From assembly GCF_002854065.1 (NCBI RefSeq), contig NZ_CP024147.1: a stretch of 64,000 nt of DNA. One strand, given 5' to 3'. Source of the DNA: Escherichia coli (GTDB taxonomy: Bacteria; Pseudomonadota; Gammaproteobacteria; Enterobacterales; Enterobacteriaceae). Shown in pieces: positions 1 through 11,703 of the stretch. A program made the position numbers and the translations under genes. Positions within the stretch are counted from its first letter, which is position 1; every line of letters begins with the position of its first letter. Under the pieces are notes generated by a model, which worked only from the letters and a program-made list of their open reading frames with translations, did no database searches and was not told the origin of the DNA.

Positions 1-342
1 TAACATCCCCTGCATGACTATTTTATGACGCACATAAATGGCTATTCCATTCAGTACCGAGAGAATTGTTGCAGTTAAGCGAATAGCAGGCAAGGTAACT
101 GCCGCTTAAAAAATATTTTTAAGAATAATATTAAGATTAATTAATCGAGTATTTTTAGGAATTTCTTTATATTGACAGATTACAGAGTGAGTTTCTCACC
201 ATCAAATATTTCACGGGAATATTATCCCCTATTTTCACAATATCCTTAGATTTTGTCATGATAAATCACAGGCAGACGTTGCATTTTGCCGCGGCTTTAT
301 CCATGATCAATTTGTCTTGTAACATAAGGTTTTAACCAACGT

Positions 343-1923
343 ATGGAATGGATTGCCGATCCCTCTATTTGGGCGGGACTCGTGACGCTGGTCGTCATTG
401 AGCTGGTTCTCGGAATTGATAATCTGGTGTTTATCGCCATCTTGGCGGAAAAGCTGCCGCCAACCCAGCGCGACCGCGCGCGCGTCACCGGGCTTATTCT
501 GGCCATGCTGATGCGCCTTCTGCTGCTGGCCTCTATTTCGTGGCTGGTCACGCTCACCCAGCCTTTATTCAGCATCCGTGATTTCACCTTCAGCGCCCGC
601 GACCTCATTATGCTGGTCGGCGGCTTCTTCCTGCTCTTTAAAGCCACGGTAGAGCTCAACGAGCGGCTGGAAGGGAAAGACAGCGATAACCCTACCCAGC
701 GGCGCGGCGCGCGCTTCTGGGGCGTAGTGGCGCAGATTGTGGTGCTGGATGCCGTTTTCTCGCTCGACTCGGTGATTACTGCCGTCGGCATGGTCGACCA
801 TCTGGCGGTGATGATGGCGGCGGTGATTATTGCCATCAGCCTGATGCTGCTGGCCAGTAAAGCGCTCACCCGCTTTGTGAACAGCCACCCGACCATTGTT
901 ATCCTGTGTCTGAGCTTCCTGTTGATGATTGGCTTTAGCCTGGTGGCGGAAGGCTTTGGCCTCGTCATACCTAAAGGTTATCTGTACGCGGCTATCGGTT
1001 TCTCAGTGATGATCGAGTTCTTAAACCAGCTGGCCATCTTCAACCGTCGTCGCTTCCTCACCGCTAACCAGTCGCTGCGAAGCCGCACGACGGAGGCGGT
1101 TATGCGCCTGCTGAGCGGCAAGAAAGAGGATGCCGAGCTGGATGTCGGTACCGCCTCGCTGCTGGTGGACCAGGACGATCAGCAAATCTTCGACCCGCAG
1201 GAACGGCGGATGATTGAGCGTGTGCTCAACCTTAACCAGCGCACGGTCAGCAGTATCATGACTTCACGTCACGATATCGAGCACATCGACCTCAGCGCGC
1301 CGGAAAGCGAAATTCGCGCGCTGCTGGAGAAAAACCAGCATACCCGCCTGGTAGTGACCGGCGGCGATGACGAAGAAGATCTGCTCGGCGTGGTGCACGT
1401 CATCGATCTGTTGCAGCAGTCGCTACGCGGTGAGCCGCTGGATCTGCGCGTACTGATCCGCCAGCCGCTGGTCTTCCCGGAGGCGCTGCCGCTGCTGTCA
1501 GCGCTGGAACAATTCCGTAACGCGCGAACCCACTTTGCCTTCGTGGTGGATGAGTTTGGTTCGGTCGAGGGGATTGTGACGTTAAGCGACGTGACCGAGA
1601 CCATTGCCGGTAACCTGCCAAACGAGGCTGAAGGGATTGATGCGCGCCACGACATCCAGAAAAATGCCGACGGCAGCTGGACGGCAAATGGCCACATGCC
1701 GCTGGAAGATCTGGTGCAGTACGTTCCGCTGCCGCTGGATGAAAAGCGCGAGTACCACACCATTGCCGGGCTGCTCATGGAACACCTGCAGCGCATTCCC
1801 ACAGCCGGTGAAGAGGTGCAGATTGGCCCGTGGACGCTGAAAACCTTACAGGTCGAGAGCCACAGGGTACAGAAAGTGCAGATTATCCCGCCGCCGCAGG
1901 AAGAGTGGGATTACGAAGTGTAA
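343..1923 (+). CDS. yegH: TerC-family integral membrane protein with C-terminal CBS/CorC-type domains (YegH-like)
   Basis: 526-aa ORF; hydrophobic N-terminal half with the '[16 protein letters not shown]' TerC-like motif, then a CBS-pair/CorC_HlyC-like C-terminus; position upstream of asmA as in E. coli. Confidence 0.85.
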
Positions 1924-1929
1924 TATTTT

Positions 1930-1952
1930 CCCGGCGGCGCCATGCCGCCGGG
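1930..1952. terminator. GC-rich hairpin between convergent yegH and asmA (likely bidirectional terminator)
   Basis: Inverted repeat cccggcggcgcc/atgccgccggg immediately after the yegH stop and before the asmA stop. Confidence 0.4.
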
Positions 1953-1962
1953 CTTAGGGATG

Positions 1963-10094: not shown

Positions 10095-10246
10095 AAAGGA
10101 ATGAGGGTAAGGGAGGATTGCTCCTCCCCCTGGTATCTTAGTAAGCCGGTAAGCTAATGACTAAGAGTATTACCAGTATGATGACTAGCCTCATCATAAC
10201 CCTTTCCTTATAAAAGGCCCCTTCGTCAGGAGGGGCTTTCCTGTTT
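10095..10246 (+). ncRNA. sib: Sib-type antisense sRNA (antitoxin of type I Ibs/Sib system); boundaries approximate
   Basis: Fully overlaps the ibs ORF on the opposite strand and ends in a rho-independent terminator (ggcccc...aggggc followed by a T-run) at about 10215..10246. Confidence 0.45.
10138..10197 (-). CDS. ibs: Ibs-family type I toxin (19-aa hydrophobic peptide)
   Basis: Minus-strand ORF ATGATGAGGCTAGTCATCATACTGGTAATACTCTTAGTCATTAGCTTACCGGCTTACTAA = MMRLVIILVILLVISLPAY, matching the Ibs toxin pattern; located between yegD and mdtA as ibsA/ibsB are in K-12. Confidence 0.6.
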   Translation of the reverse strand: MMRLVIILVILLVISLPAY

Positions 10247-10367
10247 TAGCGCCCTGCTAAACGCCGCTGACGGTAGCACACGCGGCGATTGCGCGGTTTT
10301 TCATCGCCGCGGATTGCGAGGAGCCTCGTAAAGCTGACGCGATTCAGACGATTCCTTCCGTGTTTCA

Positions 10368-10386
10368 TATTTCCTCCATTTTTCCC
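10368..10386 (+). promoter_or_regulatory. Putative BaeR-box-like motif upstream of mdtA
   Basis: Sequence atttcctccatttttccc resembles the reported BaeR binding consensus TTTTTCTCCATDATTGGC, about 65-80 bp upstream of the mdtA start. Confidence 0.3.
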
Positions 10387-10449
10387 GAGCGTTCCGTTAC
10401 TAAACTAGTATCATTTCGTGAAATGATTCAGGACGAGACACCTATAACG

Positions 10450-11703
10450 ATGAAAGGCAGTCATAAGATTCGCTGGCGGGTAGCGCTGGCCGTGCTGGTG
10501 GTGGTCGCGGGGGCGGCTGGCATCTGGCACTTTAGCAGCAATTCTGACACCTCGGGTTCCACCGCAGCCAAACCGGTGGGAGCGCCGTCAGCTGGCGGCG
10601 GGCGACACGGTGGACGCTTTGGCGGCGCGCTGGCGCCGGTCCAGGCCGCTACCGCCACCAGTGAAGCGGTACCGCGCTACCTCAGCGGGCTGGGCACCAT
10701 TACCGCTGCCAATACCGTTACCGTGCGCAGCCGCGTCGACGGCCAACTGATGGCCATTCACTTCCAGGAAGGCCAGCAGGTCAAAGCCGGCGATCTGCTG
10801 GCGGAAATTGACCCCAGCCAGTTTAAAGTGGCGCTGGCTCAGGCGCAGGGGCAGTTGGCTAAAGATAAAGCCACGCTCGCTAATGCACGTCGTGATTTAG
10901 CCCGCTATCAGCAACTGGTCAAAACCAATCTTGTCTCTCGCCAGGAGCTGGATACCCAGCAATCGCTGGTGAGCGAAACCGAAGGCACAATTAAAGCCGA
11001 CCAGGCCGCCGTCGCCAGCGCCCAGCTGCAGCTCGACTGGAGCCGCATCACCGCACCGATTGACGGTCGCGTGGGCTTAAAACAGGTGGATATCGGCAAC
11101 CAGATTTCCAGCGGTGATACCACCGGTATCGTCGTGCTGACCCAGACGCATCCTATCGATTTAGTCTTTACCCTGCCGGAAAGCGATATCGCTACTGTAG
11201 TGCAGGCGCAAAAAGCCGGAAAACCGCTGGTGGTAGAAGCCTGGGATCGCACCAATTCGAAGAAATTAAGTGAAGGCACGCTGTTAAGCCTCGATAACCA
11301 AATCGATGCCACAACCGGTACGATTAAAGTGAAAGCACGCTTTAATAATCAGGATGATGCGCTGTTTCCCAATCAGTTTGTTAACGCGCGCATGTTAGTC
11401 GACACCGAACAAAACGCCGTAGTGATCCCAACAGCCGCCCTGCAAATGGGCAATGAAGGCCATTTTGTCTGGGTGCTGAATAGCGAAAACAAGGTCAGCA
11501 AACATCTGGTGACGCCGGGCATTCAGGACAGTCAGAAAGTGGTGATCCGTGCAGGTATTTCTGCGGGCGATCGCGTGGTGACAGACGGCATTGATCGCCT
11601 GACCGAAGGGGCGAAAGTGGAAGTGGTGGAAGCCCAGAGCGCCACCACTCCGGAAGAGAAAGCCACCAGCCGCGAATACGCGAAAAAAGGAGCACGCTCC
11701 TGA
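10450..11703 (+). CDS. mdtA: Multidrug efflux RND membrane fusion protein MdtA
   Basis: ORF 10360..11703; start assigned to the Met at 10450 (MKGSHKIRW...), ~417 aa; HlyD/biotinyl-lipoyl fold; stop overlaps the mdtB start. Confidence 0.9.

Follow-up and report, generated by a model that had tools for sequence, protein, structure and literature searches.

The window analysed here, a stretch of 64,000 nucleotides from Escherichia coli (RefSeq assembly GCF_002854065.1, contig NZ_CP024147.1), opens with yegH, asmA, dcd, udk, a dgcE homologue, alkA, yegD and a Sib/Ibs toxin-antitoxin module, followed by mdtA, mdtB and mdtC. The part that lies to the left of the middle of mdtA differs sharply from E. 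coli K-12, and it is the right-hand end of a much longer tract, which runs from sbcB to mdtA and was very probably acquired from the genus Kluyvera. The window was compared with K-12 MG1655 by blastn over four reference loci (2,075,001-2,232,000) and a per-position map. Positions 1-11139 are 74.92% identical to K-12, with 82.7% of the sequence alignable, whereas positions 11145-64000 are 98.23% identical, with 95.6% alignable. The portions on the right that do not align to K-12 are insertion sequence (IS) elements, a parDE cassette and deletions. The original prediction, made from the letters of the window, held that the left ~11 kb is more diverged from K-12 than the rest, and this contrast bears it out. 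The many substitutions suspected in AlkA, Udk and Dcd are also present (protein identities to K-12 are given in Table 1). MdtA is 87.3% identical to the K-12 protein, and all 53 differences are confined to alignment columns 5-231, whereas MdtB and MdtC are 99.7% identical to their K-12 counterparts. Therefore, as had been anticipated, the N-terminal part of MdtA is diverged, and the remainder and the downstream genes are K-12-like.

The break was located by scanning the first 30 kb of the window for the maximum chi-square, together with identity profiles at 1 kb and, around the break, at 100 bp. The contrast in identity between left and right has a chi-square of 8329, with the breakpoint at 11140, and the 1-kb profile is not uniform, showing a sharp break at the same place. 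A set of 5,426 complete RefSeq E. coli genomes was used for comparison across the species. Positions 1-11200 are matched at 99% or more in only five of these, and the five match at 99.9% or more over the part of the window that belongs to the tract. In nearly all of the other complete genomes, positions 1-11200 are ~79% identical over ~50% coverage; positions 11201-36000 find 95-99% identity in 6,313 records.

The AsmA protein of the window was used as a query to search for the donor in a scan of one genome per species, which recovered relatives in Kluyvera and in two other Enterobacteriaceae genomes only. Amino acid identity is 99% to AsmA of Kluyvera genomosp. 3 YDC799 (CP022114.1), 93% to that of Kluyvera georgiana, 77-82% to those of K. 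ascorbata, K. cryocrescens, Kluyvera genomosp. 1 and one of the two other genomes, and 66% to that of the second. Nucleotide identity over positions 1-11139 follows the same order, with 98.45% to YDC799 (173 substitutions in 11,128 aligned bases), 92.8% to K. georgiana and 80-86% to the remaining Kluyvera. The identity to YDC799 is 97-99.8% in each 500-bp bin from -8000, which is 8 kb to the left of the window, to 11000. To the right of the break it falls to 79-85.6%, precisely where the window turns E. coli-like. The open reading frames of YDC799 look fragmented, but this was rejected as a real property, given that all 32 indels between YDC799 and the window are single-base deletions in YDC799 and are most likely assembly errors. 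Since the frames are probably damaged by assembly, nucleotide rather than protein comparisons were used for YDC799.

Sequence comparison identifies Kluyvera as the donor genus, and the diverged part is evidently not a distant E. coli allele. The divergence that was first proposed is confirmed but was understated, in that the donor belongs to another genus altogether, rather than to a diverged E. coli or to Shigella, Citrobacter or Salmonella. A deep allele class within E. coli or Escherichia, or import from another Escherichia species, has in its favor that the neighbourhood of the O-antigen locus is known for very divergent alleles, such as those of gnd and galF. This origin is very improbable, given the 98.45% identity to Kluyvera genomosp. 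3, the graded identity in other Kluyvera and the identity of only 75% to E. coli, together with a gene content of Kluyvera type. Furthermore, Kluyvera genomes are ~80% identical to E. coli beyond both junctions, and divergence on both sides of a junction indicates that the segment is native to Kluyvera. The same flanks bear on the direction of transfer. High identity alone gives no direction, so that transfer from this E. coli lineage into Kluyvera must be weighed, and it has next to no probability. Among the other 5,421 complete E. coli genomes, identity to the segment is ~75-80%, save for 13 records that match partially at 80-90%; its relatedness to several Kluyvera species is ordered as vertical descent predicts; and beyond the junctions, the Kluyvera sequence is just as diverged from E. 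coli.

The right junction was mapped across mdtA by means of three-way informative sites in the window, K-12 and YDC799. The last site of donor type, at 11139, is G in the window and in six of six Kluyvera-type loci, and C in both K-12 and PEC148. The first site of E. coli type, at 11145, is G in E. coli and A in all six Kluyvera-type loci. At each of the two sites, the difference between the Kluyvera-type loci (six) and the E. coli references (two) is fixed, and the sites place the end of the tract inside mdtA, where the original prediction had put the end of a recombination tract, near 11.1-11.2 kb. The string of informative sites flips only once at each end of the tract, as an abrupt single change, between 11139 and 11145 on the right and between nt 360 and nt 384 of sbcB on the left. 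A patchy or mosaic right junction, as donor-type sites at 11211, 11289 and 11292 might suggest, was rejected, since these sites are ordinary E. coli polymorphisms that PEC148 also has. A Chi site lies just outside the junction (Table 1), within a block of 32 nt (11225-11256) that K-12 and Kluyvera share without a difference, and its orientation suits entry of RecBCD from the right end of an incoming fragment. The first 20 kb of the window hold six top-strand Chi sites, and the chance of one lying so near the junction is ~3% by a post hoc estimate, such that a link between this Chi site and the junction is only suggestive.

The tract extends beyond the left edge of the window, and its full length was followed in the genome of CUWW06, which departs from the window at a single position over a comparison of 11.66 kb. 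The low-identity tract of CUWW06 runs 56.4 kb further left, with 67-86% identity to K-12, through wza-wcaM, galF, an O-antigen cluster, gndA, ugd, hisI-hisL, an SDR gene, plaP, tsuA, tsuB and sbcB. The donor reference on this side was a Kluyvera-like locus (CP078559.1) that is 97.5% identical to the tract and lies in a non-E. coli context, both of which suggest that it belongs to Kluyvera genomosp. 3. With this reference, the sites in sbcB change from E. coli type to donor type at the position given above, across a block of 23 nt, GATCCTTACGCCTGGAGCTGGCA (sbcB nt 361-383), that is identical in both genera. The tract totals ~67.2 kb (CUWW06 NZ_CP182139.1 ~2,900,275-2,967,477), stands in for ~71.6 kb of K-12-type sequence, and is colinear with the K-12 gene order over 67 kb from sbcB to mdtA, as seen in colinear high-scoring alignments. 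Both sbcB and mdtA are in-frame chimeras that are annotated as intact proteins; the chimeric MdtA is WP_001575951.1, annotated in CUWW06, EC24 and MEI4BO-21. The interval of 1-11200 that was first assigned to the tract is thus correct at its right end, but its left edge is merely the edge of the window, and the size was understated, as the window carries only the final 11.1 kb of ~67 kb.

The five complete genomes that carry the tract are those of strains 100416 (Gambia), CUWW06 (Thailand), MEI4BO-21 (Switzerland), EC24 (Spain) and SY3626 (China), and the right junction is common to all five. The TsuA allele of the tract is indexed in 259 blocks of a wider assembly collection, and NCTC strains and many draft assemblies carry tract alleles. 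A jump from ~98% to ~75% identity raises the default worry of an assembly chimera or a mixed culture, in which Kluyvera contigs would be misjoined into E. coli, although nothing specific speaks for it. This is exceedingly improbable, as five independently sequenced complete genomes from five countries have one right junction, the tract is found in NCTC strains and drafts as well, and both junctions fall in frame inside orthologous genes. On the left, the strings of informative sites at the junction are identical in CUWW06 and CP142552, and over the first ~4.5 kb inside the junction the remaining carrier loci match CUWW06 at 99.8-100% identity. The left flanks of the carriers have 1-9 differences in 3,756 nt, compared to 42-44 differences from K-12. 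On the right, EC24 and MEI4BO-21 have two single-nucleotide differences from the window (13085 and 13625) between 11145 and 16057; from 16058 on, they differ from it by 1-3%, and rbt/dal genes replace gat. The junctions of all examined carriers evidently share one origin.

Signatures of a mobile element are absent at both ends of the tract. There are no tRNA genes in the window, no repeats in the yegD-mdtA spacer (9900-10500), and no integrase at either junction, and the sole integrase is that of a variable prophage, which lies ~330 nt away from the left junction. Ends that lack integrase, tRNA and repeats point to a homologous double crossover across ~20-25% divergence. Delivery and insertion by a mobile element, whether an integrative and conjugative element, a genomic island, or lateral or specialised transduction by the prophage at sbcB, would find support in the lambdoid prophage and integrase that adjoin sbcB in CUWW06 and SY3626, and of which 100416 keeps a remnant, and in the fact that the tract runs one way from that prophage. 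However, the att core (sbcB nt ~20-49) and the ~330 nt that follow are of E. coli type, so the junction is not at the attachment site, and the prophage is missing from carriers with the same junction or with tract alleles (CP142552, EC24 and NCTC strains). Moreover, the replacement is orthologous and colinear rather than an addition of genes, 67 kb is more than one lambda-size headful, and the HNH endonuclease and P27-family small terminase of the prophage would point to cos-type packaging. Insertion by a mobile element is accordingly held to be unlikely, if somewhat less so than the other alternatives. The vehicle may nonetheless have been a phage or plasmid, with integration itself by homologous crossover.

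The prophage of CUWW06 (2861628-2899907) is a lambdoid element of ~38 kb in the 5' end of sbcB, with an att core of ~30 nt. It supplies a new 5' end for sbcB. This CUWW06-type prophage is degraded by IS1 in 100416 and absent from other carriers. It was considered as the left end of the tract and rejected, as ~330 nt of E. coli-type sbcB intervene and some carriers are prophage-free.

It can be stated with high confidence that ~67.2 kb of Kluyvera genomosp. 3-like DNA replaced the orthologous part of the E. coli chromosome by homologous (homeologous) double crossover. An ancestor of the lineage would have taken up a long linear fragment of the chromosome of a bacterium resembling Kluyvera genomosp. 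3, and a double crossover would have swapped ~71.6 kb, by the K-12 measure, for 67.2 kb of orthologous Kluyvera DNA, with the left crossover at sbcB nt 361-383 and the right crossover in mdtA at 11140-11144 of the window. The incoming DNA brought the remainder of sbcB together with tsuAB, plaP, the his operon, ugd, gnd, an O52-type O-antigen cluster that depends on an ABC transporter, galF and the colanic-acid cluster, and, in its right part, yegH, asmA, dcd, udk, the short dgcE homologue, alkA, yegD, a single Sib/Ibs module and 55% of mdtA, from its 5' end. The exchange left behind two in-frame chimeric genes, sbcB and mdtA. It removed yeeY, yefM-yoeB, wzzB, yegI, yegJ, pphC, yegL and one sib/ibs copy, which are E. 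coli genes that Kluyvera lacks here. The identical block on the left and the Chi site beside the right junction suggest that the linear fragment was processed by RecA and RecBCD. Selection for a new O antigen may have favored the product, given the known hot spot around the O-antigen locus.

Several points weigh against this account. The identity between the available donor and recipient references at the right junction is 5 nt, and efficient RecA-dependent exchange is usually quoted as needing ~20-30 nt of identity; the resolved crossover therefore need not mark where pairing started. On the left, the nearest correctly oriented Chi site outside the junction is ~2 kb off in the Kluyvera-like reference. 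YDC799 would be a relative of the donor rather than the donor itself, because it differs from the tract by 1.55%. The vehicle is represented by candidates, which are conjugative mobilisation or a transducing particle of P1 size, proposed because 67 kb exceeds a lambda-size head. Finally, we infer from its flanks only that the O52-type cluster is native to Kluyvera.

The gene content of the tract within the window (Table 1) agrees with a Kluyvera origin in three respects: the absence of yegI-yegJ-pphC-yegL, the single Sib/Ibs module and the short dgcE homologue. Between yegD and sibA, K-12 has yegI, yegJ, pphC and yegL, and none of these is found in the window or in the colinear Kluyvera loci. 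There is one Sib/Ibs module in the window, compared to two in K-12 and three in PEC148. The dgcE homologue is a single frame of 770-782 amino acids in K. georgiana, K. ascorbata, K. cryocrescens, Kluyvera genomosp. 1 and one other Enterobacteriaceae genome, whereas in the window it is split into 573 and 208 amino acids, with TAG at positions 7131-7133 in place of the CAG of YDC799 and K. georgiana. It is annotated in CUWW06 as MASE1 and PAS pseudogenes. The lineage of the window is thus without E. coli dgcE and without an intact substitute. The broken homologue could alter control by cyclic di-GMP of curli and cellulose, a phenotype that would follow from the loss of the gene.

Table 1. Positions in the window of the tract, its right junction, the neighbouring flank and the genes and RNA of the tract
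Feature	Position	Strand	Remarks
Right-hand 11.1 kb of the ~67.2 kb Kluyvera-derived tract	1..11139		74.9% identity to K-12 vs 98.45% to YDC799
yegH, Kluyvera allele	343..1923	+	89.4% amino acid identity to K-12; TerC family protein in the CUWW06 annotation
asmA, Kluyvera allele	1963..3807	-	62.9% amino acid identity to K-12
dcd, Kluyvera allele	3834..4415	-	94.8% amino acid identity to K-12
udk, Kluyvera allele	4493..5134	-	92.0% amino acid identity to K-12
Short dgcE homologue, Kluyvera-type, broken by TAG	5412..7757	+	~775 amino acids in Kluyvera, 1105 in K-12
alkA, Kluyvera allele	7697..8554	-	66.7% amino acid identity to K-12
yegD, Kluyvera allele	8703..10055	+	84.9% amino acid identity to K-12; followed by the Sib/Ibs module and mdtA
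Single Sib antitoxin RNA	10066..10212	+	Rfam SIB_RNA, 150 bits, E = 9e-32
ibs toxin open reading frame	10138-10197	- (opposite Sib RNA)	Coding sequence annotated in CUWW06
Chimeric mdtA	10450..11703	+	Codons 1 to ~230 Kluyvera-type, rest E. coli-type
Right recombination junction	11140..11144		Inside mdtA, ~codon 231; 5-nt shared interval
E. coli-type flank (mdtA 3' part, mdtB, mdtC 5' part)	11145..16050		Near-identical in EC24, MEI4BO-21 and the window lineage
Chi site GCTGGTGG	11226..11233	+	82 nt right of (outside) the junction; same place in YDC799

The O-antigen cluster within the tract is of the O52 type. In CUWW06, genes for 6-deoxy-heptose lie between galF and gndA together with glf, fcf1, rfbAB, wzm and wzt, the last two of which are annotated as "O52 family". 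The O52 cluster has been described as containing wzm/wzt and the GDP-6-deoxy-D-manno-heptose genes dmhAB, hddAC and gmhAB (Feng et al. 2004, as cited in PMC7685785), as well as the dTDP-D-Fucf genes rmlAB and fcf1, plus glf (PMC7685785). All of the genes expected for O52 are listed between galF and gndA in CUWW06, a match in gene content to the E. coli O52 cluster that is at the level of annotation rather than of alignment to a type strain. The O52-type cluster occurs in four of the 5,426 complete E. coli genomes, which are exactly the four that carry the whole tract, and 450 indexed blocks of the wider assembly collection contain a Wzt protein identical to that of the cluster. In the literature searched, no comment on a foreign origin for the flanks of O52 was found.

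The interior of the tract has a more varied history than its ends. The four O52-type genomes differ within the tract by a few bases per 11 kb, as judged from bit scores. Over the sbcB-hisI part, four of the five complete carriers are 100% identical and SY3626 is 89.8% identical. The his region of CP142552.1 and of the NCTC record UGEC01000002.1 is 96-98% identical to that of CUWW06, whereas SY3626, CP057705.1 and the NCTC record UGDN01000003.1 have in common a his-operon allele that is ~82% identical to that of CUWW06. In SY3626 (NZ_CP059283.1 ~1695500-1737000), a nested segment of ~41 kb runs from wzxC to hisG and carries another wzm/wzt O-antigen cluster. This segment was followed end to end in SY3626 only; the others share its his-operon part. 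It is ~82% identical to both K-12 and the Kluyvera tract, and thus derives from a third genus.

These observations allow the tentative idea that the tract acts as a "landing pad," in which near-identical Kluyvera homology arms make surface-antigen swaps with Kluyvera, and with others via it, far easier than they are for ordinary E. coli. The idea is possible but on balance doubtful. It draws on carriers that have in common the left junction region, the first 4.5 kb and, among complete genomes, the right junction, and yet hold at least three interiors: one with O52, one with another his allele (96-98%) that resembles Kluyvera genomosp. 3, and one in which the ~41 kb segment of a third genus is nested. 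If it were true, E. coli serogroup O52 would exist only through this import.

Other features lie to the right of the tract. In the sensor domain of baeS (19400-20100), identity to K-12 is 88.0%, compared to 98.3-98.7% on either side, and this patch is matched at 99% or more in only three of the 5,426 complete E. coli genomes and is absent from EC24 and MEI4BO-21. The patch was considered as a second piece of the Kluyvera import and rejected, as BaeS of YDC799 is 85% identical in amino acid sequence, whereas E. coli BaeS fragments are 93-96% identical. Because these fragments are closer than BaeS of YDC799, the patch is a separate import, for which the donor may be another Escherichia species (the protein search matches mostly fragments). 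Two copies of IS1 (43764-44531 and 48020-48789), 99.9% alike, each lie where K-12 DNA is missing, namely yehA-yehE (K-12 2187528-2192917) and yehF-yehQ (K-12 2196405-2210607), and the yeh losses look like IS1-associated deletions. A copy of IS5 (30298-31502) lies at the gatA/gatZ boundary with a loss of ~187 bp of K-12 sequence (2174995-2175183), and the insertion should inactivate the galactitol operon. The gatR gene is intact in the window, without the IS3E insertion of K-12. Between yegP and trhP (~21996-22775) there are ~780 bp that are not in K-12, at a place where PEC148 has a ParD/ParE toxin-antitoxin pair, and at ~24400 the window lacks the PR-X prophage remnant of K-12 (ogrK, yegZ). 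Finally, identity to K-12 dips to 93-96% in bglX (57001-59000), compared to the 97-99.9% typical of the right-hand part; the dip may be an ordinary divergent E. coli allele.

Import from another genus at the O-antigen hot spot is an already documented type of event. Intergeneric transfer has been described at the gnd/O-antigen (rfb) region of enteric bacteria (Nelson & Selander 1994, PNAS 91:10227, as cited in PMC5429811), and E. coli O8/O9 have been linked to Klebsiella O5/O3 (PMC5429811). The present tract resembles these cases in its location at the same hot spot, in crossover within conserved flanking genes, and in a cargo that is an ABC-transporter-type O-antigen cluster from another genus of the Enterobacteriaceae. 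It differs in that the donor is Kluyvera, in that both junctions are mapped, to 5 nt and 23 nt, and in its extent of ~67 kb from sbcB to mdtA, far past galF-gnd, such that dcd, udk, alkA and asmA were replaced along with the his operon and the entire colanic-acid cluster. That a new O antigen is what selection favors is the usual argument for the hot spot (PMC7685785, and Nelson & Selander 1994 via PMC5429811). A survey of Enterobacteriales lists 218 between-genus cases of recent exchange of the cps locus (PMC7305143). It is alike in describing between-genus exchange of surface polysaccharides, but it scored locus types rather than housekeeping flanks; Kluyvera appears there only in the list of genera, and the sbcB-mdtA tract is not described. 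In the literature searched, no chromosomal import from Kluyvera to E. coli, no sbcB-mdtA extent with housekeeping operons and no O52 cargo was found, and YDC799 goes unmentioned in a paper on the genomics of Kluyvera. The outline of the mechanism and the selective logic are those of exchange between partners that are 1-3% apart, whereas the partners here are ~20-25% apart. Mismatch repair strongly suppresses exchange between such divergent partners.

The tract provides a cleanly resolved case of natural recombination over ~20-25% divergence, in which ~60 chromosomal genes, including the his operon, gnd, dcd and udk, were replaced. It names Kluyvera, a genus known above all as the origin of CTX-M beta-lactamase genes, as a donor of chromosomal DNA, and it points to where the O52 antigen of E. 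coli may have come from. The lineage that carries the tract occurs on three continents and has been found in humans, food, soil and wastewater. The tract also provides natural chimeric proteins, MdtA and SbcB, and natural losses of yegI/pphC/yegL, wzzB, yefM-yoeB and full-length dgcE. Finally, tracts like this distort core-genome phylogenies and typing schemes that use loci of the region, such that masking is needed.

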